Assembly: GCA_964600615.1 (NCBI GenBank)
Contig: CAZRJK010000003.1
Coordinates: 11,142 to 75,141, forward strand
Length of the DNA: 64,000 nucleotides
Reading direction: 5' to 3'
Origin: an uncultured Muribaculaceae bacterium
Lineage (GTDB): Bacteria > Bacillota_I > Bacilli_A > RF39 > UBA660
This document shows positions 10,708-64,000 of the stretch, piece after piece. The translations under genes were made by a program, and so were the position numbers. How positions within the stretch are numbered: position 1 is the first letter of the stretch; every line of letters starts with the position of its first letter. The notes beneath the pieces were generated by a model. It did no database searches and had not been told where the DNA came from. It worked only from the letters and a program-made list of their open reading frames with translations.

Positions 10708-11145
10708 TTATCCTCCTAATAGTAGTCTTATTAAACCAAATATGTATACTGCTACTGTTCCATATAATATTACTGAACCTGCTAATTTGAAGATATTTGA
10801 TCCTATTCCTAATATTAAACCTTCTTGTTTATACTCCAAGGCTGCACTTGTTATAGCATGGGAAAATCCTGTTATAGGAATTAGTAAAGCACTTTTTAAT
10901 TTTGTTACTAACACATCAAATATTCCTATACCTGTTAGGAATGAAGCTATTACTATTAAAGTTATTATTACTAGTACTCCTGATTCTTTTCTTGGAAGAT
11001 TAAATATTATTTGGTACCATTCTAATAATAATTCCCCTATTAAACCCATTAGTCCTCCCCCGATAAATGCTACTATACTATTTGTTGCTATTTGTGGTTT
11101 GGGAAGATATTCTTTTATAAATTCTTGATATTCTGTATTATTCAT
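10708..11145 (-). CDS. spoVAC: Stage V sporulation protein AC
   Basis: 145-aa four-TM protein at the head of the spoVAC-AD-AE triplet. Confidence 0.85.
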   Translation of the reverse strand: MNNTEYQEFIKEYLPKPQIATNSIVAFIGGGLMGLIGELLLEWYQIIFNLPRKESGVLVIITLIVIASFLTGIGIFDVLVTKLKSALLIPITGFSHAITSAALEYKQEGLILGIGSNIFKLAGSVILYGTVAVYIFGLIRLLLGG

Positions 11146-27448: not shown

Positions 27449-27600
27449 GCTATACCTTCTTTCTTTTTTGCATTATTGTTTTTGTTTTTTTATTTGCTAT
27501 AACTATTATATTCTTCTAATTCTTTAGTGTATAAGTTAATTTTCAACTTTAGTCCTGCTATTTCTTTTAATATTTCTAAAGTTATTTTATTGTATTCTTT
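27324..27600. repeat. 277-nt direct repeat, copy 1 (5' end of paralogue A, intergenic, 3' end of paralogue B)
   Basis: By eye identical base-for-base to 29456..29732 (offset 2132 nt). Confidence 0.85.
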
Positions 27601-29580: not shown

Positions 29581-29732
29581 GCTATACCTTCTTTCTTTTT
29601 TGCATTATTGTTTTTGTTTTTTTATTTGCTATAACTATTATATTCTTCTAATTCTTTAGTGTATAAGTTAATTTTCAACTTTAGTCCTGCTATTTCTTTT
29701 AATATTTCTAAAGTTATTTTATTGTATTCTTT
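29456..29732. repeat. 277-nt direct repeat, copy 2 (5' end of paralogue B, intergenic, 3' end of remnant ORF)
   Basis: Identical by eye to 27324..27600. Confidence 0.85.
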
Positions 29733-29750
29733 TTTAAAGAATAGGCCCAT
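29622..29750 (-). pseudogene. Internally deleted remnant of an LRR/coiled-coil paralogue (42-aa ORF)
   Basis: Minus strand encodes MGLFFKKEYNKITLEILKEIAGLKLKINLYTKELEEYNSYSK. This is a family N-terminus (MGLxFK) joined directly to the last 35 residues of paralogue B. Confidence 0.7.
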
Positions 29751-29807
29751 TTTGATCACTCTTTTCTTTTATTTTCTATGTTTTTAATTTTTTGACATAT
29801 AAGTTTA

Positions 29808-47004: not shown

Positions 47005-47026
47005 AATTCACCTCTAGTATTATTAG

Positions 47027-47049
47027 AAAAAAGTTCAGTTAAACTGAAC
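47027..47049 (-). terminator. Intrinsic terminator after telA-like gene
   Basis: GTTCAG-TTTAA-CTGAAC hairpin followed by 6 U on the minus strand. Confidence 0.6.
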
Positions 47050-47052
47050 ATT

Positions 47053-48198
47053 TTATTTTTTTACTTGAATTTCTAACATTTTATCTTTTAATTCTTTTTC
47101 TATGTCTTCTAGAACTTTTTCTGCTTCTTGTCTCTTAATTCTACCATTTTCATGAATTTCTATTACTTTATCTAATGTTTCAATTAAATCTTTGTTAGTT
47201 TTCTGTAATGTTTCAATATTAACAATAGCTTTTTCGCTTTCTTCTGCTATCTCAATTGATCCTTGTTTTAGAGTTTCACTATTTTTTACTAGCATTTCAT
47301 TAGTTAATTTAGAAACTGCTTGTTGTCCTTTTAAGGCTTGCTTTGCATTATTAATTCCAAGAGCTAACACCATTTGATTTTTCCATAAAGGAATAGTGTT
47401 TGTGATTGAGCTTTGAATTTTTTCTACTAATTCAGCTTCGTTATTCTGTAATAGTCTTATTTGTGGTGCCATTTGAATTGAGATTATTCTTGTTGTTTTT
47501 AAGTCATAGATTTTCTTTTCAAATCTATTAATCATATTTTCCATATCTTGTACTTTTTGAATGTCTAATTGTTCTCCACTTTTTTCAGCTATTTCTTTCA
47601 ATTCTTTTAGCGTTACATTTCTTAATTCATCTAATTTCTTTTCACCAGCGATTATATATAGTGAAATTTCTTTAAAATATTCTAAATTTTTTTCATACAT
47701 TGTATCAAAGATGTTTATATCTTTTAACATTTGTAGTTTATCTCTTTCTAGTCCTTTTTCTATAGTGTCAATATTTTTTTCTATTTTACTGTATTTTGCT
47801 ATTATTTTATCTAATTCTTTTTTTGCGTTACTAAATAATTTTTCTAGTAATCCTTTTTTCTCACTTGCAGAAATATCTCTATCAAATGATTTGATTTGAC
47901 TTACTAAATCTGCTAATAAATCTCCTGTTTCTCCGATATTTTTTGTTTTAACATCTTCTAAAATACTATCTGAGAATTCACTTATTTTTGCTTGGGCAGC
48001 AGCTCCAAATTGTAGTATTTGAGTTGTGTCTTCTACGTCTAATTTTTCATTAAACTCATCTATTGCTTCTTTTTCTTCTTTTGATAACAAATCATAGTTT
48101 AATGATTTTTCTATTGTTGATTCTGTTACTTCTTTTGTTTCTGCTAATTTGTCTAATTCCTTTTCATCCATCTTTTTTTCTACTTTTAATTCCATCAT
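47053..48198 (-). CDS. TelA/YaaN-family toxic anion resistance protein
   Basis: About 380-aa all-helical protein with a TelA-like N-terminal region (ILQFGAAAQAKISEFSDSIL). It lies next to an XpaC-like gene, as in B. subtilis xpaC-yaaN. Confidence 0.75.
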   Translation of the reverse strand: MMELKVEKKMDEKELDKLAETKEVTESTIEKSLNYDLLSKEEKEAIDEFNEKLDVEDTTQILQFGAAAQAKISEFSDSILEDVKTKNIGETGDLLADLVSQIKSFDRDISASEKKGLLEKLFSNAKKELDKIIAKYSKIEKNIDTIEKGLERDKLQMLKDINIFDTMYEKNLEYFKEISLYIIAGEKKLDELRNVTLKELKEIAEKSGEQLDIQKVQDMENMINRFEKKIYDLKTTRIISIQMAPQIRLLQNNEAELVEKIQSSITNTIPLWKNQMVLALGINNAKQALKGQQAVSKLTNEMLVKNSETLKQGSIEIAEESEKAIVNIETLQKTNKDLIETLDKVIEIHENGRIKRQEAEKVLEDIEKELKDKMLEIQVKK

Positions 48199-48215
48199 AA
48201 TAATTATCTCCTTCT

Positions 48216-49412
48216 TTAATTTTTTAAATAATCACTTAATTTATTATAAGTATCCATTTTTAAACTAGTTACAGTACTGCTTATAGTTTGAGGTACTCCT
48301 ATTCCTATACTTGTTACATCATATGTACCTCCAGTTACACCAGTTCTAAATCCATATTTTTCCCATGCTATTTGACTTATTTCTTTATCTTCTAGTGCCT
48401 TGTATAGTTTACTTCCTTTATCGGTAAATACAGCAAAGCAATGGGAATTCCAAATAGTTGGTGTTGGATACAATACTCTAATTTCATCTTTTACTTGTTC
48501 AAAGGCTTCAGGACTAGAGTTTGCAAAATCTATCATACTTTTTTCATAATCTACTATCATTGGTTCTCCGCCCATACCAGTTTTTAAATATCTTTCAAAT
48601 AAATCAGCTGGTGTATTATTCATATAACCTGATTTGATATAGAATTGTTTTAATTTTGGTAAATTCTCATTGATATTTTCTTCTGTAACTTGTCCATTAG
48701 ATAATATTGATAGCAATAATCCATAGTAAGTTGCACCTGGTGAAGATGATACTGGGTCTGTTGAAGCTATATTAATTGTTCCATATAGGTTGGTTAGTCC
48801 TATATCTGTCCATTTTTTACCTTCAAGGATATAGTTGATTAATTTGTTCATATCACTTATGTAGTAAACTCCGTCATTTTCGGTAACGATGTTTTCTTTC
48901 ATTAATACTTCTACTACGCCTTTCCAACTATATATTACTATTGGTGTATTTAGTGTTAAGCCTCCATCTAATACTGTGTATCTATCGGCTTCTTTTAATT
49001 CTTTATTTGGTTGTAATTTATAGTAATCATAGAATCTTTGATCTGATGTGAATAAGGCATCATATTTTGATACTCCATTACTGTTTATACTTAATTCCTC
49101 ACCAGCGCTTATTTTTTCTATTATTCCTTGATTTCCTAATCCTACTTGTTCTCTTATTAGTGGCCATAATACTGTCTTACCATTACTCCATGTATCATAT
49201 ATTACATTTAATTTATATTTGCTTTTCAATATTTTATTTACTTTTTTATCGGCTAAGAAATCTTCTTTACCACCACCTGTTGCTACATATATTGTTGTCA
49301 AATTAGTGGTAAATATATTAGTCTCTCCATTATTAAAATTTTTAATTATAATAATGGCTGCTATTAATATTATAAATATTATTATTCCTATTAATGACTT
49401 TTTATTTTTCAT
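48216..49412 (-). CDS. Membrane-anchored periplasmic-binding-protein-like (substrate-binding) protein
   Basis: N-terminal TM anchor plus about 370 aa of alpha/beta sequence. It resembles the N-terminal half of the adjacent vWA protein. The family call is tentative. Confidence 0.45.
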   Translation of the reverse strand: MKNKKSLIGIIIFIILIAAIIIIKNFNNGETNIFTTNLTTIYVATGGGKEDFLADKKVNKILKSKYKLNVIYDTWSNGKTVLWPLIREQVGLGNQGIIEKISAGEELSINSNGVSKYDALFTSDQRFYDYYKLQPNKELKEADRYTVLDGGLTLNTPIVIYSWKGVVEVLMKENIVTENDGVYYISDMNKLINYILEGKKWTDIGLTNLYGTINIASTDPVSSSPGATYYGLLLSILSNGQVTEENINENLPKLKQFYIKSGYMNNTPADLFERYLKTGMGGEPMIVDYEKSMIDFANSSPEAFEQVKDEIRVLYPTPTIWNSHCFAVFTDKGSKLYKALEDKEISQIAWEKYGFRTGVTGGTYDVTSIGIGVPQTISSTVTSLKMDTYNKLSDYLKN

Positions 49413-50034
49413 CTACATCTTCACCTTTCATTATAAGTTTATCTTTTACTATTCCATCCGCTTTTAACATTAATTCATATACTTTCATTTCGGCGTCAGC
49501 ATCAACAATATCTTTTCGATATAGTGATGATAGAATACTTTCGAATGCATCTTTAGTTTCTCCAATCATTGCATCGGCTTTTTCCATAAATTTTTTACTT
49601 TCTGAAGAAACCATTTTTTTATTTTCTATTTCATCATATCTGTTTACTATTTTTATTAATACTGGTAAATAATACTCAAAGAAATTATTTAATTTTTTTT
49701 CTTTGCTTGGATCATTTTCTACTACTTCTAGTATTTTAGCTACGGTATTATTTATTTCTTTTAAATTATCTTTAGTTTCTTTTTTTTCTACTTTTGATAT
49801 TAGATTAAATATTTCTTTGTTTTGTTTTTTTGCTGTTAAAATCTTTTTATACAAACTTATATTTGTTTCTTTTAATGATTCTTTGGTATTTACTTCAGAT
49901 AATACTAATTTAGTTGCTCCAAAGGCTGCACAGCCTATTACTAATGAAGGAGCTAGAGCTATAGATAGTCCTAAGTAAGGAATAGCAAAGAAAGCACTTC
50001 CTATTACGGCTGAAGCGATATCTTTATTCTTCAT
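49402..50034 (-). CDS. xpaC: XpaC-like (5-bromo-4-chloroindolyl phosphate hydrolysis family) membrane protein
   Basis: Two N-terminal TM helices and a helical C-terminal domain, about 210 aa. It is adjacent to telA-like and overlaps both neighbours. Confidence 0.55.
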   Translation of the reverse strand: MKNKDIASAVIGSAFFAIPYLGLSIALAPSLVIGCAAFGATKLVLSEVNTKESLKETNISLYKKILTAKKQNKEIFNLISKVEKKETKDNLKEINNTVAKILEVVENDPSKEKKLNNFFEYYLPVLIKIVNRYDEIENKKMVSSESKKFMEKADAMIGETKDAFESILSSLYRKDIVDADAEMKVYELMLKADGIVKDKLIMKGEDVDEK

Positions 50035-51638
50035 TAGTTGTAACTCCTTACTTCTGAAAATGCACTTTTTAACCCGTTTTTACCATTAAATACTTTACCA
50101 TTTGATAAATCTGCTAAACCTTCTAGTTGACTTTCTGACGATTCACCAAAAGTAATACTATATATTGGTATATTTAGTTTGTTATCATTATAGTATTTTT
50201 TTAACGTATTATAATTTCCTGTGTTGGAATAGCCATCAGTCATTAAGATAACTGTTTTAGTATAATCGTTTTCATTATCGTCTTTCAATATTCTTAATGC
50301 TTCTTTACTTGAATCATAAATGTTTGTTGCACCATTTGCTTCTAGAGAGTTTATATATAGTATTATTTCATTAGTTTGATTTCCAAGTTTAGTGTCATAT
50401 ACTTTGAATTTTTCATTAAAACTTATAATTGTTATTTTATCTTTATCAGAGAATTGTAATCTATCTTTACTAGCTTCTTCGGTATCTAGTATATATGTCA
50501 TAGCGTCTTTTAGTTCACTTAATCCACCACCATTCATACTTCCTGATACATCCAAACAGAATACTACATGTGTTGGTTTGCGAAGGGCTTCTATAAATAA
50601 ATCAAACGCTTTATTTATTACATTTTTACTTGGATATTTCATATCTTTTAGATATTTGCTAGTATCAATTCCCCATTCTTTATTGAAGGTTTTCTCATCA
50701 GTATTTTCTTTTGTTCCTCCATACCAAGCTCGATATCCTAATTTTTCCATTTTTGTTTGCATTTTTTCACTTGTTAAATAAGATTGAATTTTTAAGAATT
50801 TTTCTTTATTTTTAGTATCTTTTGTATCATTATTTACATAGGCAAAAGGCATATCGTTTATAGCAACACCATCTTTTGGATATATTAGATATAGGGGTTC
50901 TTTTTTATTTTTTAATAATTCTTTATTTAAGTTTATTAGAGAGCTTTCATAGTTTATCATGGCATTATAATCACCTTTTAAAAACATTGTTTTAAGGTAA
51001 TCTTCATCTCCTGATACTCTTTCTACTCCTTTGAATAAGCTTTTTAAATCATTAATTAGTTTTTCATCGTTTAGCATATTTTCTGTTAATACTTCAGGAC
51101 TTCCGGCTAGACTATTTAAAAAACTTAAATAACTAGTTGCTCCAGTATTGGTTTTTGTTACAGAAGCCATTATATATTTTAACTTGTTTTCTTTTATTAC
51201 ATTTACTATATCTTGGTTATAGACATCTTTACCTACAAGTCCTAACTCTTCGGCTTTACTTTTGGATATACCTAGTACTACAGGGTTTATTACTATTGAC
51301 TTACTATCAGTAGTTAAATAAGAATTATCTAACATGTATAACCAGATTGAATTTGATATCCATACAGCATCATAATCTTTACTGTTATTATTAAGAATAT
51401 CAACTATTTCTAAATCGCCGTAGTGCTCTATTTCTATGTTTATATGATTTTTCTTTCCATATGAGATTATTTCATCGTCTACCATACTTGTCGATGTTGA
51501 TGATATTATTCTAAAAGTATTATCATATAATACTTCATCTATTTCTATATCATCATTACATTTTTGAATAAAACTTAATAATAAAATACCAACTATAATA
51601 TATAAAAATATATTGCTTTTATCTTTACTTTTTGACAT
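50034..51638 (-). CDS. Membrane-anchored substrate-binding-like domain fused to a von Willebrand factor A domain
   Basis: N-terminal TM anchor and a binding-protein-like region. The vWA domain has an intact MIDAS (VVFCLDVSGSM ... ILMTDGYSNTG). Confidence 0.75.
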   Translation of the reverse strand: MSKSKDKSNIFLYIIVGILLLSFIQKCNDDIEIDEVLYDNTFRIISSTSTSMVDDEIISYGKKNHINIEIEHYGDLEIVDILNNNSKDYDAVWISNSIWLYMLDNSYLTTDSKSIVINPVVLGISKSKAEELGLVGKDVYNQDIVNVIKENKLKYIMASVTKTNTGATSYLSFLNSLAGSPEVLTENMLNDEKLINDLKSLFKGVERVSGDEDYLKTMFLKGDYNAMINYESSLINLNKELLKNKKEPLYLIYPKDGVAINDMPFAYVNNDTKDTKNKEKFLKIQSYLTSEKMQTKMEKLGYRAWYGGTKENTDEKTFNKEWGIDTSKYLKDMKYPSKNVINKAFDLFIEALRKPTHVVFCLDVSGSMNGGGLSELKDAMTYILDTEEASKDRLQFSDKDKITIISFNEKFKVYDTKLGNQTNEIILYINSLEANGATNIYDSSKEALRILKDDNENDYTKTVILMTDGYSNTGNYNTLKKYYNDNKLNIPIYSITFGESSESQLEGLADLSNGKVFNGKNGLKSAFSEVRSYN

Positions 51639-51773: not shown

Positions 51774-51920
51774 ATGTATTATGGATATCCTGGATATGGT
51801 TACGAGGGATTTGGTGGTAGTGGTTTATGGATAATTATAATTGTTTTAATTATTTTCTTTGTTTTATTCTGGGGTAATAATGGTTGTGGTAATAATAATT
51901 GTCATGGTAATTGTAGATAA
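51774..51920 (+). CDS. YjcZ-like tiny sporulation membrane protein (48 aa), absent from the ORF track
   Basis: MYYGYPGYGYEGFGGSGLWIIIIVLIIFFVLFWGNNGCGNNNCHGNCR. The RBS is AAAGGAGTGAAACT-ATG, and a hairpin with a T-run follows at 51921..51955. Confidence 0.6.
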   Translation: MYYGYPGYGYEGFGGSGLWIIIIVLIIFFVLFWGNNGCGNNNCHGNCR

Positions 51921-53811: not shown

Positions 53812-53844
53812 AAAAAAAAAGTAAAGTTAAATTATTAACTTTAC
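53812..53844 (-). terminator. Strong intrinsic terminator after the large TasA-like gene
   Basis: 10-bp stem GTAAAGTTAA/TTAACTTTAC followed by 9 U on the minus strand. Confidence 0.75.
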
Positions 53845-53847
53845 ATT

Positions 53848-55149
53848 TTAATCTTCTGCATCATTTAAACTAAATTGAAGTTTTAAAGTTATAGCCCCAC
53901 CAGATGCATTGTTTTCACAGTCTACATCTTGTCCTTCAACCCAGAAGTATACTTTCATTTTAGTAATTTGATTAGCACCTAAGGTAAATATTTGTTTAAA
54001 CTTTCCTTCATTTGCTGTATTTTCTTGTGCTGCTGCCCAACCTTCAATAGTTTGGAATAATGTTACACCAGTTGGTGGTACGGCTGCAAATTGTGTAGAA
54101 TGCGCTGCAGCTGTTGCACTTCCTAGTGGAATATTATCTGATTCTACTACTTTAGCAATTACACCAGAGTATGATAGTGCACTATTCCCTGTACCAGCAG
54201 TAATATTACTTGATGATACTCCATATACGTTAACTGCATTATTTACTCCACTTGCTGTGTGTTTATCATAGTTTGGTTCCCATAATACTACGTTTCCTGA
54301 TAGAGTTGTAGTTTTTAAAGCTTGAGCTGTTGCAGCTGCTGTTGCTGAGTCGCTTGCTGTTGCTCCTTCTTTTATGAATGCTACACGAGCAGCGTTTTTA
54401 ATTCCTGAATCTGATCCATTTGCTATTATATCAGATGCAGTTGTTAAATATATTTGTTTTTGAGTTCCAGTAGTCTCTGCTGATGTTTCAGCATCAACTT
54501 TAAAGAATAAATCGAAACATACAAAATATCCTGATGATGTTGTATGTGTTACATTACTAATATCACTTGTTGTTAAGATATATTGTCCAGTGCTTTCATT
54601 TGATTTTACAACTCCATGCCACATTGATAAGTATCCATCATCGTTTCTTTTATCAAGAAGTGGTGTTGTAGCGTCTGATGGATCTTCATGTGTTGAAGTA
54701 TCCTTTGTTAAACTTGCTAGTGCTGATGATACTGGTTGTAATGCTGATGATGTCGCTGGTATTTGGTTAGTTGCTGTTGCGTATGTTGAATTAGCTGCAT
54801 TTAATTCAGCTGTTGTAACTAATGACTTCCAGTTAGCACCATCTACTGATATTTGAATACCTCCACTAGTAGCTACATTTACATCGATATCTCCAACTGT
54901 TACTGTTCTGTTAGAAGTAAACCATGCATATGTGGTTGTTGCTAATAGGAATCCAGTTGCTATTAATAATAATAGTAATAATAGGACTCTTCTTCTACTT
55001 TTTTGTGGTTTTTCTTCTTTTGCAGGAGCAACAGGTTCAAGATTTTCTTTTCTTTCTACTTGTTCATTTTGCTGACCATTTAATTGACTAGTTATGTTTT
55101 CAATTACTGGTCCATTTGTTTGTTCTCCATTTAATTCTCTTTCGTCCAT
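53848..55149 (-). CDS. Large secreted Ala/Thr/Ser-rich protein with SipW-dependent-type signal motif (TasA-position gene)
   Basis: About 60-aa acidic/polar N-terminal extension, then RRRVLLLLLLLIATGFLLATTTYAWFTS, comparable to TasA/CalY G-T-x-A-x-F-(S/T/N)-D. A beta-rich mature region follows. The gene lies immediately downstream of a SipW-type peptidase. Confidence 0.65.
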   Translation of the reverse strand: MDERELNGEQTNGPVIENITSQLNGQQNEQVERKENLEPVAPAKEEKPQKSRRRVLLLLLLLIATGFLLATTTYAWFTSNRTVTVGDIDVNVATSGGIQISVDGANWKSLVTTAELNAANSTYATATNQIPATSSALQPVSSALASLTKDTSTHEDPSDATTPLLDKRNDDGYLSMWHGVVKSNESTGQYILTTSDISNVTHTTSSGYFVCFDLFFKVDAETSAETTGTQKQIYLTTASDIIANGSDSGIKNAARVAFIKEGATASDSATAAATAQALKTTTLSGNVVLWEPNYDKHTASGVNNAVNVYGVSSSNITAGTGNSALSYSGVIAKVVESDNIPLGSATAAAHSTQFAAVPPTGVTLFQTIEGWAAAQENTANEGKFKQIFTLGANQITKMKVYFWVEGQDVDCENNASGGAITLKLQFSLNDAED

Positions 55150-55204
55150 AACTTCTCTCCTTATTTCTATTTTTCAACTTACCCTCTCTTACTCTATATA
55201 AATA

Positions 55205-55233
55205 ATAATATCATATTATTTTCTATAATGCAA
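55205..55233 (-). promoter_or_regulatory. Candidate sigma-A promoter in front of the large TasA-like gene
   Basis: Minus strand reads TTGCAT, a 17-nt spacer, then TATTAT, about 55 nt upstream of the start codon. Chance matches are common in AT-rich DNA. Confidence 0.4.
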
Positions 55234-55249
55234 TATTTTTTTTAATTTT

Positions 55250-56431
55250 TTAATTATCAACTATTTGGTTTGAATCAATTACAATTCTTATGCTCTCTAT
55301 TGTATTTTGATAGATAGCGTTAGCACTTGCGGTGCTGTAATAAATTAGTAATGTATAGTTGTTTATTGCAGGTGTATTATAATATAGTTCTTCCTTATTA
55401 AAAGTCATTGTTTTAAAGTATGTTCCATCGTCATCTTGAGCTACTACTGTGTTGTTATTGGTAACAAGATTTGTTGATGAGTTGGAAGTATAATCTTCAT
55501 TTTTGTATAATTTATATGTTAAAGGTAAGTTGGTTGTGGTTATAATCTTTAGTATGTATTCTAAATCAACTTCACTTGTTTCATTTGAGTCATAATTACT
55601 TATGGAAAATGTATATACATAAGGTGTATCACTTGGTGCTAAAGTTGTTAGTTTTACATTATTGGTCATATATGTTGGCTTTAATAAATAATAAGCTACA
55701 TTTGTACTTGTAGTTCCAACAGCTGTAGTCATATATCTTGATAATGTTATTGGAATAGTGCTTGTTATTATTAAAAATATTAGTAATAAACAATCCATTT
55801 TTATCATGCCTTTTAATCTTTTTTGGTCAATATTTTTTATTATATTCTTTCTTATATATGTATTGGGTTCCAACCCTTTTATTGGTTTTTTTACTCTATT
55901 TCTTATTCTTTTTGTTCTATAGGAAATTGTTATACTTATTATTAGTAGAGTTATAATTAGTAAACATAATACTTTTGGTGATAATAGTATTTTTCTTATT
56001 AAACCAATATTCGGTATTATAAATACTAATTTACCTATGATATTTTTTTTATTTACTATTTGATCGGGTATATTGTTTGCGTCTCCTTTAGTAGTATATT
56101 TATCTTCTTTTATGTTAGTAATTCTATGAGTTATGTAATTATCTTCTATTTCATAGGTAATAATATCATTCTTTTTGAATTTAGTGTCATCCGTTTTTTC
56201 TTTTATTATTACTAAATCTTCTTTTTTTATTTTAGGTGACATGCTGTCGCTATCTACTATAAAATAAGCATAACCAAAGATAGAAGTGTATCCTTTCTTT
56301 GAGGTTTTAGTATTTATAACGCTATAGATTATAAATGCTATTGTTATAATTATTAAGACTAATAAAATACGAGAAATTATTATACTTAATTTATCAAGGT
56401 TCAGGTGTCGGTTCTGGTTCTGGTTCTTCAA
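55250..56431 (-). CDS. sipW: SipW-type (S26B) signal peptidase I fused to a C-terminal signal-peptide-bearing beta-rich domain
   Basis: The N-half has VDSDSMSPKI (Ser), YITHRI (His) and TKGDANN (Asp) between two TM helices. The C-half has a basic linker, a third TM helix with ITLSRYMTT, and about 165 aa of beta-rich sequence. Confidence 0.75.
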   Translation of the reverse strand: MKNQNQNRHLNLDKLSIIISRILLVLIIITIAFIIYSVINTKTSKKGYTSIFGYAYFIVDSDSMSPKIKKEDLVIIKEKTDDTKFKKNDIITYEIEDNYITHRITNIKEDKYTTKGDANNIPDQIVNKKNIIGKLVFIIPNIGLIRKILLSPKVLCLLIITLLIISITISYRTKRIRNRVKKPIKGLEPNTYIRKNIIKNIDQKRLKGMIKMDCLLLIFLIITSTIPITLSRYMTTAVGTTSTNVAYYLLKPTYMTNNVKLTTLAPSDTPYVYTFSISNYDSNETSEVDLEYILKIITTTNLPLTYKLYKNEDYTSNSSTNLVTNNNTVVAQDDDGTYFKTMTFNKEELYYNTPAINNYTLLIYYSTASANAIYQNTIESIRIVIDSNQIVDN

Positions 56432-57047
56432 TTGGTTCTACATACGCTTCTATCGTTTCTCCTATATATTGTTTTAATTCTACTGTAATAGGTATATTTA
56501 TATCTTCATTGGCTCTTGCTCCTAAGGCATAGTCGGCATCATCGTTGCTAGCACTATTATTCCATATAAATTGTATTTCTACATCATATTCTTTATCATT
56601 TTGGATATCGTTTAAATAAGCTATTCCTGTATAACTATTTACATCTGTTCTAGTTATTGTGTCTCCACTATTTTCACTTATTTGATATATTTGAAATTCA
56701 CTGTTATTTAATGAACTTAAATCAATTGATATTGTATACATAAAAGATACTTCTGTATCAGTTGGATCTATATATATATGAATTGTCCCAATGCTTCCTG
56801 GAGCACCTTTTCCTGGTGTTACGTGGTTTTGATTTGTCCAATTAATGCTTCCTAGATTAAAGGTTCTATTGGCAGTTGTTAAACTGGTTATAGCGGTATT
56901 ATTTACTTCAATATGCCAGTTTGCTAATCTAGAAGCTGCTGCTGCTTGGGCTCTTGTTTCAAATAATGAATAAGTTTTTATAGCTGTTACTGTTAATAGA
57001 CATACAGAAAATAAGCATATTATTATTAATATTACTTTTTTCTTCAT
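56394..57047 (-). CDS. Small secreted protein with SipW-dependent-type signal motif (TapA-position gene)
   Basis: Signal MKKKVILIIICLFSVCLLTVTAIKTYSLFET, a beta-rich body with a TPGKGAPGSIGTI segment, and a Pro/Glu-rich tail EPIEEPEPEPTPEP. Confidence 0.6.
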   Translation of the reverse strand: MKKKVILIIICLFSVCLLTVTAIKTYSLFETRAQAAAASRLANWHIEVNNTAITSLTTANRTFNLGSINWTNQNHVTPGKGAPGSIGTIHIYIDPTDTEVSFMYTISIDLSSLNNSEFQIYQISENSGDTITRTDVNSYTGIAYLNDIQNDKEYDVEIQFIWNNSASNDDADYALGARANEDINIPITVELKQYIGETIEAYVEPIEEPEPEPTPEP

Positions 57048-57051
57048 TTAA

Positions 57052-57582
57052 TTAATTTTTTAATTGTTTTTTTACTTCTAGTGCTATTGCATAAATTTCA
57101 TATAAGAATATGAATAATATTGGTAATACTACTGCTGATAAGAATACCCATCTAGATTCTAATAGAGCTAATACTCCGCCTAGTGCACTATACACTTTTG
57201 TATCCTTTGTTGCTCCTATTACATATTCACTTGAAAAATCTGCGTTTCCTTCCATTGTAAAAGTAGTTTCTGTATCTGTTACTTTTCTTTTATTTATAAC
57301 TTTTCCTAAATTGATATTTACTGTTTTATGTTCTGTGTCTGTTTCATAAAAGAAAATCATGTCCCCGATGTTTATCTCATCATTAGATTTTTTTTCTACA
57401 ACCAATAAATCTCCCTTTTTGTAATCCCCTAAATTTTGGTCTGTTATTGGAATATACGTTTTATTTCCTAGTACTGTAGTATTATAATCGTTATAGTTTA
57501 GCAGGAATACGGTTACTGTTATAACAATCGCTAGATATATTACTACAAGTATACCTCCAATAAATTTTAAAAATCCTTTCAT
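57052..57582 (-). CDS. Catalytically degenerate SipW-like (S26B-fold) membrane protein
   Basis: Same two-TM topology and spacing as SipW. SGSMEP is replaced by ITDQNLGD, THR by NLGK and KGDNN by EGNAD. The start MKGFLKF at 57582 follows GAAGGTGGTAAG; the ORF extends to 57612. Confidence 0.6.
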   Translation of the reverse strand: MKGFLKFIGGILVVIYLAIVITVTVFLLNYNDYNTTVLGNKTYIPITDQNLGDYKKGDLLVVEKKSNDEINIGDMIFFYETDTEHKTVNINLGKVINKRKVTDTETTFTMEGNADFSSEYVIGATKDTKVYSALGGVLALLESRWVFLSAVVLPILFIFLYEIYAIALEVKKQLKN

Positions 57583-57634
57583 CTTACCACCTTCTATTTT
57601 AAAGTATATCACATTATACTTTTTAGTGCAATTA

Positions 57635-59173
57635 TTATTTATTAATTATTTCATTTGAATTACATAAGAATTCTATATCTTCATATTTTAATGTGCTTTT
57701 ATCAATTATATTTTTTAGTATTATTTTTTCTAGAGTTTCTATTGTTGTATCCAGGCTATTTTCTATAGTATCACTGGTAATATTTATACCTAATAATTTA
57801 TATTTATCACTTATTATTCTAGCTATATCTCTTTCTTCATTTATACTTATATAATTTATTATATTGATATCAAAACTATGAACATATAATTTTATTTCTT
57901 CTATTTTTTTATCTATTTCTTCTTCAGTTATTCCTTCAAATGTTTTCTTAATGATAGATTTTAGATAAATATAATAGGAACTTGCTATTAATAGTAAATC
58001 ATATAATGTATTGGAATCATTTAAACCAAATATTACTTCATTGAATTTATCTATTTCTAATTCTTCATATAATTTTTTGATATTAATTATTTCGTTTTCA
58101 TTATCTAATAGTAGTTTGTCTAATTTATCTTGATTTTTAAAGAATTTGCTATTTTCTTTGGAATAATATTTTTTAGTTAGTCCTATTATTTTGTTATTAG
58201 CTTTAGTTATTTCTTTTAATTTATTTTTAAATACATCTTTATATTTAGTTTTTTCCTTATATATATTTGTTACATCTTCTATTATATAAGAGTATTCTTT
58301 ATAATATTTATATTCTTTTAGAGTTGTTAATAAATTATCTATTATTTCAATACTTTCTTCATTGCTACCTATTTGGTTATAGTAACCTTCTACTTTAGAA
58401 TTTTCATAATCTGCTATATTATAAGTTTTATCTAAAAAGTTATTTACGATATTGTTTAAATTGGTTAATTTATTTAGATAATCATTTTTTATAGCAGTTT
58501 TATAATTATCTTTTATATTTATTTCTTTTAAATTTAATTCTTTTAGTAGTTTTTCTTTTTTGATATTGTAATATTTATCAAAGGTTTTTTTATTTTGATA
58601 ATATAAATAACTTATATTAAAGGCTATTTCAATTATTAAATCGGGACATTTCCAATATACTTCTTCAAAACATTTTTTTAGAGTATCAATATTTAAATTA
58701 TCTTGCTTTATTTCTTCTAAGAATAGAGTCATATATTTATTTACATATGTCGAATATTTAAAATTATCTTTAGTTAGATTTATACCTGCTTCTTTAAATA
58801 TTAGAATACATTGTTTTATATCTTCATTTACTTTAGAAAAATCATCTTGATAGAACCTAGTTATTTCATCTATTATTCTATCTAGATTGCTCTTTTCATA
58901 GGTTGTATTATAATTATTTGATAAATCTAGATATTCTTTATATTTTTCTATTCTAGGATCTGTTTCTGTTTCTTTTACTTCTTTACTTACTGTTATAAGG
59001 TGCTGATATCTATCATTAATTTCTTTATTTATTTTTATTTTTAAGCTTTCAGCATCATCTAGTAATCCATCTATGTAATTAGAATATTTTTCTTTATTTT
59101 TTACATTGTTTTTCGGCATATTTGCCATAGCTTCTTTAATAGAATTTATTTTTGTTTCTAATTCATTATTCAT
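57635..59173 (-). CDS. Cytoplasmic K/E/N/Y-rich all-helical (coiled-coil) protein
   Basis: 512 aa with no TM or signal and no recognised domain. It is the second gene of the sipW-containing transcription unit. Confidence 0.55.
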   Translation of the reverse strand: MNNELETKINSIKEAMANMPKNNVKNKEKYSNYIDGLLDDAESLKIKINKEINDRYQHLITVSKEVKETETDPRIEKYKEYLDLSNNYNTTYEKSNLDRIIDEITRFYQDDFSKVNEDIKQCILIFKEAGINLTKDNFKYSTYVNKYMTLFLEEIKQDNLNIDTLKKCFEEVYWKCPDLIIEIAFNISYLYYQNKKTFDKYYNIKKEKLLKELNLKEINIKDNYKTAIKNDYLNKLTNLNNIVNNFLDKTYNIADYENSKVEGYYNQIGSNEESIEIIDNLLTTLKEYKYYKEYSYIIEDVTNIYKEKTKYKDVFKNKLKEITKANNKIIGLTKKYYSKENSKFFKNQDKLDKLLLDNENEIINIKKLYEELEIDKFNEVIFGLNDSNTLYDLLLIASSYYIYLKSIIKKTFEGITEEEIDKKIEEIKLYVHSFDINIINYISINEERDIARIISDKYKLLGINITSDTIENSLDTTIETLEKIILKNIIDKSTLKYEDIEFLCNSNEIINK

Positions 59174-59288
59174 CTTCTTGTTTCACCGTTTCTTTCTCTT
59201 TTTCTAGGAAGCCTATAAAATCATTTATTTGCTTGTTTAATTCTAATAATTCGTTATATGATAGATTACTAGGTTCAATGTTATTCAT
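59166..59288 (-). CDS. 40-aa helical micro-ORF, absent from the ORF track
   Basis: MNNIEPSNLSYNELLELNKQINDFIGFLEKEKETVKQEDE. The RBS is AGAGGTGATA-ATG. Its stop overlaps the start of the downstream gene (ATGAATAA). Confidence 0.5.
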   Translation of the reverse strand: MNNIEPSNLSYNELLELNKQINDFIGFLEKEKETVKQEDE

Positions 59289-59348
59289 ATTATCACCTCT
59301 ATATTATTATATCTAATTTCTTTTTTAAAGTCTACTAATTATTAAGAA

Positions 59349-59372
59349 AAGAAGTAGTTTTTTCTACTTCTT
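59349..59372 (-). terminator. Stem-loop after the giant repeat protein gene
   Basis: AAGAAGTAG-TTTTTT-CTACTTCTT hairpin overlapping the stop, with a U-rich tail on the minus strand. Confidence 0.5.
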
Positions 59373-62300
59373 ATTCTACTATTATATCTCTGTATGCACT
59401 ACCTATATATGTATCATAATCATATAAGCGGAATTCTAATCTATAGGTTCCTGTTGTTAGATTATCTTTTGTTGTTAGATTGAAGAGATTTTCAGAATTC
59501 GGATATCTTGCAACATAATATTCGTTGGTGTTTCCGGTTGAATCTAATTCTGTTGTAAAGATATTGTTATAATCAAATGATGTATAGTTATAAGTGAATG
59601 CAGCAGCATATGTTCTTCTTTGAACGAATAATCTTATTGATGGTGAAGTTAATCCGGATGCATATTTAACATTAAAGGCTAGTGTATTATTTCCATCTTG
59701 TGATTTTCCAGTTTCAGCATCTACTAAGACATCGTTATCTGCTAAATCTATAGATAAACCATATATTTCGTTTACTATTCTAAAGTTTAGTGTCGTTTGT
59801 CTTGAAGATACTAAACCATAATATATTCCATCGGAAGAACCAAATGTATCTATTCTTAGTTTGTAATTACCGGTTGCTATGTTAGCATTTTGAGCATTTA
59901 TTTTTATTCTTGATGATACATTAGCTACTCTTTCTGCTATATTAAATCTAGTTGTTCCATCTACTCTAGGATAATAAGTTACACCATTATATTCATAGTT
60001 TAATCCTAATAAACTAACGCCATTGACTATATTATCATTTGCATCTAAGATAGTTATTTTTATACCTAATTTTAAATCATAGAAATTTGTATCAATTATT
60101 CTGGTATTATCTACTTGTTGCTGAGCAAAATCTGTTATTACTGTTAGGGTTGTATCTTTTCCTATATATAAGTTTGTGTTACTTAGACTAGCATTTAGAT
60201 TAATTATACCATCTTTATTATTATATAGGTTATATCTCATTCTCACTTGTTCAACGTCTAGTACAGGTATTGCTTGACTATTTGGTTTTCTTAATTCAAA
60301 TAATAGTTGTTCTTCTATGACATCGGTATTTAAATTTGTATCTTTTAGATCAACTATAAAGATAAATTCTTCTTCAGCTACATGATTAGTTGAATCATAA
60401 TATCTTAAGTTTGCTGCATTATCATCATATATATTACCCGAGCTCGAGCTATCCATTTTTATAAATTTAGATAATCTGTAACTTATTTCGTGTTGTTGTG
60501 CTAATTCTTGGACACTTGCGTTATAATCTGCTTGATTTATTACATAATAATAGTAATCAGGATTACCAGTTGTGGCTAGGTCTATCATTGTTATTTTAGT
60601 ATTTACTGGTAAGGCATAGCTAGATACTAGTGTTCTATAAGAACCTGTTGGATATATTGTTGTATTACTTGCTGAATATAATGAATAGTAGGCACTAAAT
60701 GTACTTCTATTTGTTATGTTTACAGCGTTATTAGCAAACATTTCATATTTAGGTCCTGGAGATATTGTGGCTTCATAGTTATCTCCTTCATATAATATCG
60801 TTTTTAAGTTTGCAACAATATTTATTCTTTTTACTCTATTACTTATTTCATTTATTGGTGTTGCTATCATTAATGATATTGTTACATATCCTAAATCTTG
60901 AGTTATATCTAAGTTTTTAGAGTGATGCAAATAGAATATAAAGCTTGGTATAGCGTTTGAGTTTTCTGCTTTATATATAGTAGTACCAACAATATCTCTT
61001 TGGCCTGTTGTTAGAAATTGAGTATTACCTTGCGTAATCCAACCTACGGTACCTGTTTCCATTTGTAAACCAAAGTTGGTATTGGCAGCAGTAGTTGATT
61101 GCGCGTGTCTTGGTATTTGATGATAATCTAATAAGTTTATATTACTATTTAGACCATCAAAATTTACACCAATTATGTCTATTTCAGTATTTGGTTCGTA
61201 ATAATCTAGTAATTGTAATTCATAGGTTCCTAAGGTTGCATACTTAGATGCTGTTAAATCAAATTCAATGTTTTCTACTTGTTCTCCAACTACCCATCGA
61301 TAGTAAGTTGCGTTGTCTGGAGTTGGGATAATAATATCTGTTTTTATTGTTTCTCCATCATCATTAACATAGTTAGTAAAGTATCCATCAACATTATAAT
61401 TATGACTTGTTTTGTGTTTTCCTACGACATAGCTACCACTTGAGAAATAGTATAGTTCGGATGTTGGTACGCTATCTCCAGCTTCATATTGTGGAGAATA
61501 CATTGCTGTTGCTACTATGCCATTTCTGTCTAAAGTAAACATTCCGAAGAAGGCCATTCCATTAACGTTACCAAATGTTCCTAATGATTCATCATCAGAA
61601 ATATTTAGATTCTTTCCTTCTATCATGTATACTCTGTTATCAACGTTAGTTGTTACTGCTCCGGTTGTTTCATTTAATGAAAATGTTTCTTTTACTTCAC
61701 TATTATTTTGATCTTTTAGACTGGAAATGTTTTCTAATAGGTTTGCACCTTTTTCTAAATAGATAGTTGAGCCGTTTTTTAGTTTTAAATGTCCAATTCT
61801 ACTGAAAGTAAATAATTCAGTTTTAAATTTATTAGTTCTATCGGTTGCTCCTGATAATTTTATAGCACTGTTATCTAAGGTTACAATATCACTTCTTTGA
61901 ATAGATACATTACTTTTATAGTTAGATGCCGTTCCGTAATTTTTAATGTATATATAGCTGTATCCACCAGAAGATGAAGCATTACCACTTCCAAATATTG
62001 AACCATTTATTAAGAATGTATTATGTCCGGTAGCATCAATATTTATATTAATTCCTTCAGTTACACTTATGAAGCTATAGTCGTAGTCTTCACTACCGGC
62101 AGCGTTGGCTTCTCCACCACCGAAGACTGTTCCATTTATGGTTATGTTTCCTTTTGTTAAGTTATAACTACTATCTACCGCTTGATCGCCAATATTTACG
62201 GTTGTTACTCCATATAATACTGATGTGTTAGCTCCTCCATAAACGTTTCCACCAATGGTTGCTCCTACTATGTTTACTTCACTATTGGAATTATTTGGAT

Positions 62301-64000
62301 TTGTACAAATGGCGATTACGTTACCACCGATATCTTCTATATCTTGCGCACATCCAGTGGCAGCGGCATTTCCACCACCGAAGACGTGATTTGATATGCT
62401 GGTTGTTCCTTCAATATTTAATAAGGTGTCTCCCAACACGATTGCTGTTGATCCATTACCTCCGGCATATACGCTTGTTAGAATTGTGCCATTTTTTATT
62501 TTTACGGATGTATCTTCAAGAACCATTCCGTTGTTACCACCACCGAAGACATTTCCTTCTACGGTTGCTCCATCAATTATTACGTTAGTGCTTGCTTCTG
62601 CTGCAGCGGCATTTCCACCACCAAAGACGCTTCCTTCTACTGTTGCAGAATTCTTTATCGTTACGTTGGTATCGTCATTAGCACTTGCTAAGTTTCCACC
62701 ACCGTAGACATTTTGTTCTACGGTTGCATTGTTTACTTCAACATTAGTAATTCCTTCTACTTCTCCAGCGTTACCTCCACCATAGACATTTCCTTCTATA
62801 GTTGCAGAGTTATTTATTGTTACATAAGTATCGTCATTAGCGGCTGCAGAATTACCGCCACCATAAACATTTTGTTTTACGGTTGCATTATTTATTTCTA
62901 CTGTTGTAATACCATCTACTTCTCCGGCATTACCTCCACCATAGACATTTTGTTCTACGGTTGCAGAATTTTTTATGGTTACGTTGGTCGCATCGCCCGT
63001 ATCAGCTTGGTTACCTCCACCATAGACACTTTGTTTTACTGTTGAACCATTTATTTCTACGGTGGTTTCATCATCGACCTCACCAACATTTCCACCACCA
63101 AAAACATTTCCTTTTATTAATGAATTATTTGTTATTGTTACGTCTGTGGTTCCTGATACATCAGCTTGGTTACCTCCACCATAGACGTTGGAATCAATGG
63201 TTGCAGAATTGGTAGTTACGACTGTATTTCCTAATACGGCTCCATTGTTTCCACCGCCAAAGACATTACCAATTACTCTTGAATTGTTTGTTATACTTAC
63301 GTTGGTGTCGGTAGTTACTTGAGCGTTATCTCCACCACCGTAAACCATTTGATTGATGGTAGCTCCATTTATTGCTACGTTTGTGGCATTGGTTCCAGCT
63401 CGTTCTCCTCCACCATAAACGTTATTTATTGTTCCTCTTGATAATGTTACATGGGATGTTGTCGTAGTACCACCTTGATTGTTTCCACCAAAGACATTTG
63501 ATACTGTTAGATTTGAGGCTGATGTTACGGTTGAAACATTGCTTGTTGTAACATTACCACTGGTATTTGATCCGCCAAAAACATTTGTTATGCTACCTGC
63601 TCCTAAATTTACATTAGTTGTTGTTACTCCGGCTTTGTTACCTCCACCATAAACGTTTGTTACTGTTCCTGAATTATAATTAATTGTGGAAGTAGTTGTT
63701 GCAGCTTGATTTCCACCACCATATACATTTGTAGCGTTTCCTGCTACTGTTACTAGGGTTGTGGTTGAGGTTCCACCTAAGTTATTTCCCCCATAAACAT
63801 CAGTTGCACTTCCGTTTAATCTAACGTTTGTTTCGGTTACTGTTCCGCTAGTATTTGATCCTCCATATACATAAGATGCTGTACTGTTTATGGTTACATT
63901 AGTTTTAGTGGTTACATCTGTTTTTTCTCCTCCACCATAAGCATTAGTTATTGTTCCACCGTTTACAGTTACGTTAGTGGTGGCTGTTGTTCCTCCTTGG
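59371..64000 (-). CDS. Giant VYGGGN-repeat (parallel beta-helix-like) protein, 5' end outside window
   Basis: The frame stays open upstream of the listed Met at 63348 (...VYGGGERAGTNATNVAINGATINQ-M-VYGGGDNAQV). There are more than 20 rungs of 26-27 aa, then about 850 aa of non-repetitive beta-rich sequence. No LPXTG or TM at the C-terminus. Confidence 0.8.
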   Translation of the reverse strand, partial: QGGTTATTNVTVNGGTITNAYGGGEKTDVTTKTNVTINSTASYVYGGSNTSGTVTETNVRLNGSATDVYGGNNLGGTSTTTLVTVAGNATNVYGGGNQAATTTSTINYNSGTVTNVYGGGNKAGVTTTNVNLGAGSITNVFGGSNTSGNVTTSNVSTVTSASNLTVSNVFGGNNQGGTTTTSHVTLSRGTINNVYGGGERAGTNATNVAINGATINQMVYGGGDNAQVTTDTNVSITNNSRVIGNVFGGGNNGAVLGNTVVTTNSATIDSNVYGGGNQADVSGTTDVTITNNSLIKGNVFGGGNVGEVDDETTVEINGSTVKQSVYGGGNQADTGDATNVTIKNSATVEQNVYGGGNAGEVDGITTVEINNATVKQNVYGGGNSAAANDDTYVTINNSATIEGNVYGGGNAGEVEGITNVEVNNATVEQNVYGGGNLASANDDTNVTIKNSATVEGSVFGGGNAAAAEASTNVIIDGATVEGNVFGGGNNGMVLEDTSVKIKNGTILTSVYAGGNGSTAIVLGDTLLNIEGTTSISNHVFGGGNAAATGCAQDIEDIGGNVIAICTNPNNSNSEVNIVGATIGGNVYGGANTSVLYGVTTVNIGDQAVDSSYNLTKGNITINGTVFGGGEANAAGSEDYDYSFISVTEGININIDATGHNTFLINGSIFGSGNASSSGGYSYIYIKNYGTASNYKSNVSIQRSDIVTLDNSAIKLSGATDRTNKFKTELFTFSRIGHLKLKNGSTIYLEKGANLLENISSLKDQNNSEVKETFSLNETTGAVTTNVDNRVYMIEGKNLNISDDESLGTFGNVNGMAFFGMFTLDRNGIVATAMYSPQYEAGDSVPTSELYYFSSGSYVVGKHKTSHNYNVDGYFTNYVNDDGETIKTDIIIPTPDNATYYRWVVGEQVENIEFDLTASKYATLGTYELQLLDYYEPNTEIDIIGVNFDGLNSNINLLDYHQIPRHAQSTTAANTNFGLQMETGTVGWITQGNTQFLTTGQRDIVGTTIYKAENSNAIPSFIFYLHHSKNLDITQDLGYVTISLMIATPINEISNRVKRINIVANLKTILYEGDNYEATISPGPKYEMFANNAVNITNRSTFSAYYSLYSASNTTIYPTGSYRTLVSSYALPVNTKITMIDLATTGNPDYYYYVINQADYNASVQELAQQHEISYRLSKFIKMDSSSSGNIYDDNAANLRYYDSTNHVAEEEFIFIVDLKDTNLNTDVIEEQLLFELRKPNSQAIPVLDVEQVRMRYNLYNNKDGIINLNASLSNTNLYIGKDTTLTVITDFAQQQVDNTRIIDTNFYDLKLGIKITILDANDNIVNGVSLLGLNYEYNGVTYYPRVDGTTRFNIAERVANVSSRIKINAQNANIATGNYKLRIDTFGSSDGIYYGLVSSRQTTLNFRIVNEIYGLSIDLADNDVLVDAETGKSQDGNNTLAFNVKYASGLTSPSIRLFVQRRTYAAAFTYNYTSFDYNNIFTTELDSTGNTNEYYVARYPNSENLFNLTTKDNLTTGTYRLEFRLYDYDTYIGSAYRDIIVE
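62000..64000 (-). repeat. Tandem coding repeats (about 78-81 nt unit, about 159-nt two-unit super-repeat) within the giant gene
   Basis: CCACCACC(A/G)TA(A/G)AC recurs on the plus strand every 78-81 nt. Alternating repeat types (AGEV.GIT..E.NNATV.QN and ..A.NDDT.VTI.NSATVEG) form a two-rung period. Confidence 0.85.

Follow-up and report, generated by a model that had tools for sequence, protein, structure and literature searches.

Gene organization and conservation

The sequence analyzed here is a 64,000-nt stretch of DNA (hereafter the window) from an uncultured bacterium, comprising positions 11,142 to 75,141 of contig CAZRJK010000003.1 (assembly GCA_964600615.1; filed as Muribaculaceae, with the GTDB lineage Bacilli_A; RF39; UBA660). 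Toward the end of this stretch, in a region of approximately 27% GC, lies a cluster of genes which are transcribed from the minus strand and which we designate, in order of transcription, G, F, E, D, C, Pep-Bc and A. The cluster combines a signal peptidase of the S26B type with a degenerate paralog of that enzyme, two cytoplasmic proteins and a set of signal-anchored proteins that share a putative cleavage motif. We are inclined, with somewhat better than even confidence, to regard it as a sortase-independent surface fiber or adhesin system which depends upon a signal peptidase of its own. Apart from Pep, all of the proteins of this cluster of at least ten genes are unannotated.

The open reading frames (ORFs) from F to A had been recognized in a preliminary description of this DNA, and their order, sizes and motifs are all present on the minus strand as described there. 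F and E overlap by 8 nt, the interval between E and D is 22 to 52 nt depending upon the start chosen for D, 4 nt lie between D and C, and the 393-codon Pep-Bc ORF overlaps the end of C. The unit was originally placed just downstream of a giant beta-helix repeat protein. This protein (G) is found at that position, but it is a member of the unit and not merely its upstream neighbor. The unit also extends past the end of the window, where further paralogs of A are located.

Relatives of A occur at 393 places in species-representative genomes. We inspected the neighborhoods of the best 80 of these places, and mapped the window proteins over 89 loci by BLASTP and hidden Markov model (HMM) searches. 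In the 80 best loci, A recurs together with F, an E protein of ~510 amino acids (aa), an S26B peptidase and G. Two gene orders are seen: the first, G-F-E-D-C-Pep-Bc-A, is that of the window, while in the second, (A-short)-A-F-E-Pep+-G, a peptidase with an additional domain of ~230 aa (Pep+) replaces the separate D, C and Bc. Common to both are A, F, E, the peptidase and G, and the flanking genes vary between genomes. The arrangement in the window is not a product of chance, as dozens of unrelated contigs share the whole set at amino-acid identities of 25-77%. A lack of co-conservation in other genomes, which the preliminary description had named as a ground for refutation, does not apply.

The signal peptidase and its fusion to Bc

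The 393-residue product of Pep-Bc (55250-56431, minus strand, TTG start) consists of an N-terminal half, the S26B signal peptidase Pep (55862-56431, minus strand), and a C-terminal half, the signal-anchored domain Bc (55250-55846, minus strand). Its N-terminal ~190 residues pass the model TIGR02228 for archaeal and endoplasmic reticulum-type signal peptidase I (86.1 bits; cut-off, 51.85), and Pep also exceeds the cut-off for Peptidase_S24 (30.5 bits against 23.3; E=3e-7). The catalytic Ser, His and Asp motifs SDSMSP, THRI and KGDAN are present, and the corresponding patterns SxSM, THR and KGDxN are kept across 31 + 12 aligned family members, where a SipW reference sequence served as a guide only. 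Hydropathy analysis places two transmembrane (TM) segments at residues 17-35 (TM1) and 148-166 (TM2). An active SipW-type peptidase fused to another signal-bearing domain had been proposed for this ORF; the match to TIGR02228, the retained catalytic residues and the anchor and motif of Bc all bear this out. The equivalog model for SipW itself (NF046067) gives Pep 90.4 bits, below its cut-off of 190, and judging from sequence Pep is a member of the same family as the Bacillus SipW, and not the same protein.

The public gene calls for this ORF are 330 aa in length and begin inside the catalytic motif. Since these calls remove both TM1 and SDSMSP, we consider the 393-aa form to be the correct one. 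The counterpart of Bc is a separate gene of ~190 aa in most relatives, which argues that the fusion is genuine; it was seen here and in the contigs L010, L040 and L085. According to hydropathy, TM2 of the 393-aa protein runs out-to-in and is followed by a basic linker and by TM3, which runs in-to-out. The peptidase domain can therefore reach the cleavage site of Bc, and self-release of Bc by Pep is plausible on this predicted topology.

In loci with the second gene order the peptidase carries, after TM2, a charged C-terminal domain of ~230 aa (L021 12863-14026, L024 6267-7529, L035 3908-5134 and L041 12947-14146), which is probably cytoplasmic. A relationship of this domain to E, D, C, Bc or A was considered, and no similarity to any of the five was found.

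The pseudo-peptidase D

The gene for D (57052-57582, minus strand) specifies a protein of 176 aa. A GTG at 57612 would offer an alternative start, giving 186 aa; the likelier start, which is also the choice of the gene callers, is the ATG at 57582, behind the ribosome-binding site GAAGGTGG. D was initially described as a catalytically dead, SipW-like protein. In agreement with this, the D family and the peptidase family align by hhalign at 97.7% (E=2.3e-12), with neither the Ser nor the His conserved: in the family alignment the Ser column varies (S/A/K/N/E or a gap) and the His column holds I, V or L. BLASTP of the 393-aa protein against D gives 22% identity (E=0.002), and by hydropathy D and Pep have the two-TM topology in common. 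Being a peptidase homolog without a conserved Ser or His, D is regarded as a conserved pseudo-peptidase. It directly follows E in 32 distinct loci. Solely from the co-conservation of the two proteins we infer that Pep and D may form a complex.

Many relatives possess, after A, a second module (L006 11087-17297; also L025, L029, L030, L034 and L056), which is absent from the window. This encodes a D-like protein of 160 aa, unknown proteins of 307 and 326 aa, a DUF2357 protein, a second peptidase homolog of ~190 aa and a 509-aa protein with weak P-loop/nSTAND-like matches.

The signal-anchored proteins

Five proteins, A, its paralog A' (see below), C, Bc and G, possess a single N-terminal hydrophobic segment followed by the motif T-x-(A/S), which takes the form T-[YF]-[AS] in A, A', C and G. 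The motif is collinear with the TasA site GGGTWA|AFND; in the fiber structure 8AUR, mature TasA starts at A28. With the model for the SipW-dependent signal, TIGR04088, A scores 14.3 bits, below the cut-off of 19. Of the 30 members of the A family, 24 match this model at E<=1 (best E=0.0016), the scores that were inspected all being below the cut-off. A SipW-type peptidase accompanied by several neighbors with a SipW-like signal, as first suggested from the ORFs, is supported by TIGR02228 and by the shared T-x-(A/S).

The putative major subunit, A (53848-55149, minus strand), is a protein of 433 aa. It begins with a variable, cytoplasmic N-tail of ~52 aa, which leads through KSRRR into a TM segment (residues 55-73) and then TTTYA|WFTSN, containing the TTYAWFTS reported initially; mature A would be about 360 aa in length. 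The ectodomain is beta-rich, rich in Ala, Thr and Ser, and ends with YFWVEGQDVDCENNASGG..LQFSLN. The gene has its own ribosome-binding site and its own terminator. More than 1000 homolog clusters were found, in none of which is there a Pfam domain; those for which the source gives a name are called 'hypothetical protein'. An AlphaFold2 (AF2) model of the monomer is likewise beta-rich, with a mean predicted local distance difference test score (pLDDT) of 74.7.

Conservation in A peaks at residues 76-105 (0.85-0.87), right behind the predicted cut, and at residues 391-420 (0.73-0.90), the last strands. The strand region that follows the cut is of low confidence in the monomer model (residues 69-79 and 89-96). 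The N-tail is the least conserved part of the protein (0.18-0.35), and its length ranges from almost nothing to ~100 aa. Residues 403-417 form an invariant loop, WVEGQDVDCENNASGG, rich in Asp, Glu and Asn and containing the only invariant Cys, in which model confidence is low at 413-417. By analogy with the calcium sites of the CanA and AbpX fibers, this loop may bind a metal or mediate contacts between subunits.

Past the end of the window there is a full paralog of A of 346 aa, A', with TTTYAWFTT... and YMWLEGQDVDCENS, and a gene of ~235-237 aa which shares with A the C-terminal motif only; both are found in L008 1-1521. The pair precedes G here, and occurs ahead of A or of G in many other loci.

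C (56394-57047, minus strand) is a signal-anchored protein of 217 aa, the AF2 model of which (pLDDT 82.6) is a small beta-sandwich. Its motif, IKTYS|LFET, includes the KTYSLFET of the preliminary description; that of Bc, ITLS|RYMTT, follows the TM segment at residues 212-230 of the 393-aa protein. C and the domain fused to Pep had been listed separately, and both are indeed signal-bearing; what had been overlooked is that they are related. The C and Bc families align by hhalign over 162 columns (95.4%, E=1.7e-8), and by this measure the two are paralogs. The N-termini of A and C also align with each other (hhalign E=4e-4).

A search of representative genomes with the C profile returned 3078 matches at E<=1e-3, of which the best 150 were inspected. 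Among the matches listed, the C-type module is fused in front of BspA-type leucine-rich-repeat (LRR), Laminin_G and Ephrin-like domains and of giant proteins. Such fusions to adhesin cargo fit a fiber-docking module, and C is a putative minor subunit, adaptor or nucleator. Individual fusions (P0279, P0355, P0373 and P0374) have BspA-type LRRs, Ephrin-receptor-like repeats, Laminin_G_3 or belong to a protein of 3424 aa; this last ends in an FGE-sulfatase-like domain.

The frame of G is open to the end of the window, so that 59371-64000 (minus strand) holds the C-terminal 1542 residues and the N-terminus lies beyond. In the identical metagenome contig L008 the full length is 2735 aa. There G begins with a signal anchor, behind which lies TTTYS|RVTN; the protein contains 37 repeats of the type [VIF][YF]GG[GSAN], spaced at 24-27 residues, which are beta-helix-like. 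No Pfam match was obtained with either the protein or its family alignment. Of the 89 loci, 66 contain a giant homolog. The preliminary description had noted the giant and its repeats, and had missed its standing as a core component with the shared signal motif; we regard G as a putative distal adhesin.

The cytoplasmic proteins F and E

F (59166-59288, minus strand) is a micro-protein of 40 aa with a helix motif, ELLELNKQINDFIGFLEKE, and an acidic tail, preceded by the ribosome-binding site AGAGGTGA. In 51 distinct loci the start of E is overlapped by a counterpart of 34-69 aa, which has an acidic tail and the motif ELLELYKxIxEFIxYLE; an F-like ORF occurs in both gene arrangements. E (57635-59173, minus strand) is a soluble protein of 512 aa from an orphan family. 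No TM or other hydrophobic segment was detected in it by hydropathy analysis, and neither the single sequence nor the profile matched anything in Pfam, PDB or NCBIfam. A search with the E-family profile among 8000 pre-filtered candidates recovered E-family proteins only. E adjoins A or the peptidase in 73 of the 89 loci, in both gene orders. D, E and F had been singled out early as having no counterpart in Bacillus, and all three are conserved across the relatives.

Proposed assembly

We propose that the five proteins A, A', C, Bc and G are exported by Sec as N-in signal anchors. Pep, paired with its dead paralog D, would cut these precursors after T-x-(A/S), the site at which SipW cuts TasA; in this genome Bc would be released by Pep from its position behind the cytoplasmic linker. 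Cleavage would expose the highly conserved N-terminal beta-strand of A (WFTSNRTVTVGDIDVNV), and the next A subunit might then take up this strand among its own conserved C-terminal strands (donor-strand complementation), so that a fiber is built. C and Bc may act as nucleator, adaptor or terminator modules and G as the adhesive end piece. F and E, which are translationally coupled, cytoplasmic and obligatory, would most likely hold or target the long-tailed precursors or control the output. Peptidase-dependent maturation is likely. Polymerization by donor strands is plausible, and we give it about an even chance. The two conservation peaks of A, the low-confidence N-terminal strand and the fusions of C-type modules to cargo together favor a fiber.

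A further proposal goes beyond this, and sees in the cluster an assembly machine of a new kind in place of a passive operon whose cleaved products assemble by themselves. The catalytic/pseudo-catalytic pair, together with the cytoplasmic module (F and E and, in the second gene order, the cytoplasmic domain of the peptidase), would choose the precursors, retain them and let them go in sequence, and so mount G upon the A fiber; in genome-reduced gut Bacilli, where sortase substrates are few or lacking, this would be the main adhesin system. This extension is rather unlikely.

Relationship to TasA and alternative interpretations

In Bacillus subtilis the tapA-sipW-tasA operon provides the closest parallel in gene order. 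The sequence of a small accessory protein, the peptidase and a large subunit, which had been recognized in the original inspection, is reproduced here by C, Pep and A. In alignments that fall short of significance, parts of the proteins are collinear with TasA as well, namely the signal with its T-x-A site, a region 'NLKPGD..F.F.N.G' in the comparison with Bc, and the last strand, where YQNTIESIRIVIDSNQ in Bc and ENNASGGAITLKLQFSLN in A correspond to YQGNSIKLQFSFEATQ in TasA. That A and C, the two secreted proteins, belong to the TasA/camelysin family is not supported, there being no match in Pfam, NCBIfam or PDB sequences and hhalign values of no more than 3%. The NCBIfam model for TasA was matched by 1 of 38 C-family members (E=0.051), and the model for TapA (TIGR04087) by 5 of the 38 (best E=0.0049), not including the C of the window. 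The cluster is TasA-like in its logic, and not in demonstrable homology.

The cluster is without an ATPase, usher or sortase. LPXTG was not found: A ends with ...LQFSLNDAED and G with ...AYRDIIVE, both lacking a C-terminal anchor, and no sortase is encoded among the genes of the locus. These absences count in favor of the sortase-independent system proposed above. No locus protein matched DUF5305 (PF17231), for which stray weak matches were seen in 5 members of the A family (best E=0.0056).

Several observations weigh against a TasA-like fiber. Searches of Pfam and of PDB sequences with A, C, Bc and G were empty, whether single proteins or families were used. With a TasA-family profile of 7 sequences (the B. 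subtilis TasA and six Bacillus plasmid genes annotated as 'TasA family'), hhalign gave 3.2% for Bc, 0.9% for C, 0.6% for A and 0.7% for C and Bc merged, and comparison with TasA alone was not significant either. Foldseek found no PDB match to the A model at E<=0.001, TasA being outside of the top 50; the subunit of the Sulfolobus thread stood at rank 9 with a probability of 0.08. For the C model, again with no PDB match at E<=0.001, CanA was recovered at E=0.04, and the TasA fiber 8aur_A stood at rank 44 with E=0.072 and a probability of 0.51; these matches were no better than those to cohesins, carbohydrate-binding modules (CBMs) and sortase pilins, and there was a weak resemblance to chaperone-usher pilins as well. 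To this must be added that A has an N-region of ~52 aa, a length uncommon among signals that are cleaved, and that the cytoplasmic pair F and E is not expected for a fiber which assembles itself without chaperones.

The lack of a structural neighbor of the A model among known fiber subunits would suit a non-filamentous surface coat, where an abundant A is monomeric or forms an S-layer-like lattice, C and Bc are small adaptors or coat proteins and G is a free-standing adhesin; the role of the peptidase would be limited to their maturation, and no donor-strand polymer would form. C resembles cohesins and CBMs as much as it does pilins, and the Ala/Thr/Ser-rich A has expression signals of its own, both of which are in keeping with a coat. 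The conservation of A is greatest at its new N-terminus and last strands, and the paralogs share the motif; these features are typical of strand-exchange fibers, and the analogous loci do form fibers. The fusion of C-type modules to varied adhesin cargo also speaks for a fiber. A coat is considered doubtful.

The long N-tail of A and the obligatory partners F and E speak for a different arrangement, in which the anchors are not removed constitutively, A and G remain tethered with their tails in contact with E and F, and Pep and D constitute a regulated sheddase that frees surface proteins in response to a signal. The peptidase of the second gene order, with its ~230-aa cytoplasmic domain, would be consistent with this; that domain and the F/E pair suggest that there is more on the cytoplasmic side than the removal of a signal. 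The N-tails are, as described above, the least conserved parts of the A proteins (0.18-0.35) and variable in length, which argues against a specific binding interface, and the T-x-(A/S) site is invariant, with the full set of catalytic residues retained in Pep. We consider a sheddase improbable, and return to the fiber or adhesin system as the preferred interpretation.

Distribution

The metagenome-assembled genomes (MAGs) that contain relatives of A are labeled as Bacilli, Erysipelotrichaceae, Tenericutes, Mollicutes, Acholeplasmataceae and 'Mycoplasma sp. CAG:877'; a small number of other labels, Muribaculaceae among them, are probably binning errors. These genomes originate from human, ruminant and rodent guts, the nearest relative (77%) being from goat jejunum. 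A phage origin was also considered and rejected, since 2.9 million viral contigs yielded 2 weak matches. Sortases have been reported to be absent in the related uncultured orders RFN20 and ML615J-28 (PMC10868615). The library that was searched yielded no paper in which SipW-type peptidases are connected with these lineages or in which the cluster is described.

Given that TasA was first described as CotN, and that PDB entry 5OF1 names it 'Spore coat-associated protein N', the products might belong to a spore-associated structure, either a coat or an appendage, and not to vegetative cells. The related uncultured orders are predicted to include sporulators (PMC10868615), and the window encodes a polysaccharide deacetylase with similarity to a sporulation family. 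The match of this deacetylase is far below its cut-off, sporulation genes and regulators are absent in and flanking the cluster, and the MAGs carry the labels Tenericutes, Mollicutes and Mycoplasma, which are classically non-sporulating. A role in the spore thus appears highly improbable, and the surface fiber or adhesin system remains the interpretation that we favor.

Comparison with known systems

The tapA-sipW-tasA operon resembles the cluster in that the gene for an S26B peptidase lies amid those of its substrates, in that the substrates have an anchor followed by T-aromatic-(A/S), and in their C-terminal motifs. The present cluster differs by the addition of the pseudo-peptidase, F and E, the 2735-aa G, a pair of small paralogs and paralogs of A, of which there are two or three, and in the size of the major subunit, where the ~360 aa of mature A compare with ~234 aa for TasA.

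The BsaA locus of Clostridium perfringens is associated with a two-component system as well as with secretion of the type IV pilus-associated kind. The sipW-bsaA genes of this low-GC Firmicute link a SipW-type peptidase to a polymer-forming matrix protein (PMC7395162, PMC11580942). Unlike the cluster here, the BsaA locus is not known to have a pseudo-peptidase, giant beta-helix protein or F/E pair.

Among the TasA-superfamily loci of Archaea and Bacteria, the haloarchaeal tafi (TafA-G), AbpA and AbpX loci encode major and minor subunits, a predicted tip or adhesin, a dedicated signal peptidase I and a non-catalytic membrane protein as the signal peptidase partner (PMC11821415; bioRxiv 10.64898/2026.01.04.697558). 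The peptidase TafD carries a second extracellular domain, and the signal sequence of AbpX is 54 aa in length (PMC11821415; bioRxiv 10.64898/2026.01.04.697558). The multi-gene layout is similar to that described here, and TafD resembles Pep-Bc. There are differences: in those loci the accessory protein is DUF5305, or else the peptidase itself has ten TM helices, and here the accessory is a paralog of the peptidase; the tafi subunits use the twin-arginine translocation (Tat) pathway; F and E are not described there; and the present hosts are genome-reduced gut Bacilli.

In eukaryotic and archaeal signal peptidase complexes an S26B catalytic subunit is found beside a non-catalytic partner of the same topology, as with Pep and D. 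Unlike in those complexes, the partner here has arisen as a paralog of the catalytic subunit itself and is degenerate. The same analogy has been drawn for DUF5305 in the AbpX preprint (bioRxiv 10.64898/2026.01.04.697558).

Transcription signals

The strong terminator that had been noted after A is confirmed as an intrinsic terminator (53812-53844, minus strand), composed of a perfect, AU-rich 10-bp hairpin and U9. Its folding energy is -12.3 kcal/mol (z=-3.6), and none of 200 shuffled sequences folded equally well. It escaped the terminator scan, the rule of which requires at least three GC pairs. The candidate sigma-70-type promoter upstream of A (55205-55233, minus strand) can be read as proposed, with TTGCAT, a 17-nt spacer and TGaTATTAT, but it does not rise above the AT-rich background: 56 promoter-like sites were observed against 64.6 in shuffled sequences. 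Because such matches are no commoner than in the shuffles, the candidate carries little weight. Two further signals on the minus strand are matches to a consensus only, namely a hairpin resembling a terminator (59349-59372), located where G has its stop codon, and a promoter-like site before F (59306-59334; TAGACT-17-TATAAT).

Neighboring genes

A block of genes at 45415-51638 (minus strand) adjoins the cluster, as it does in the identical contigs L001-L003. It encodes an AAA ATPase, TelA, an unknown protein of 398 aa, a PF10112-like protein of 210 aa and a 534-aa protein with solute-binding and VWA parts. At 51774-51920 on the plus strand there is an ORF of 48 aa, in which a head rich in Gly and Tyr is followed by a TM segment and a tail rich in Cys (MYYGYPGYGYEGFGGSG...CGNNNCHGNCR). 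This ORF is among the called genes of L001 and L003; NCBIfam yielded no match to it.

Farther away, at 25361-31928 (minus strand), lie genes for three tandem paralogs of ~700 aa, the N-terminal parts of which resemble leucine-rich-repeat adhesins (HupY/LrrG) and which have no signal peptide. The third has a weakly HopBF1-kinase-like C-terminus (E=8e-5). The three were considered as further substrates of Pep and rejected, having neither the signal nor the motif.

Significance

What is new here are the families that are not recognizable by sequence, the pseudo-peptidase, F and E, and G, as well as the fusion of Pep to Bc in this genome and a few relatives. Families are now defined for at least seven 'hypothetical' proteins, which should be of use to annotators. 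Should the cluster indeed make fibers, it would be a naturally occurring case of a signal peptidase that has a dead paralog for a partner, and would bring in cytoplasmic components that lie beyond the current chaperone-free model. The principle known from TasA and from the archaeal tafi and Abp systems would then extend to a large branch of Bacteria whose members are unrecognizable by sequence. Uncultured gut Bacilli, organisms in which little is known of attachment, possess the cluster in hundreds of their species-level genomes.

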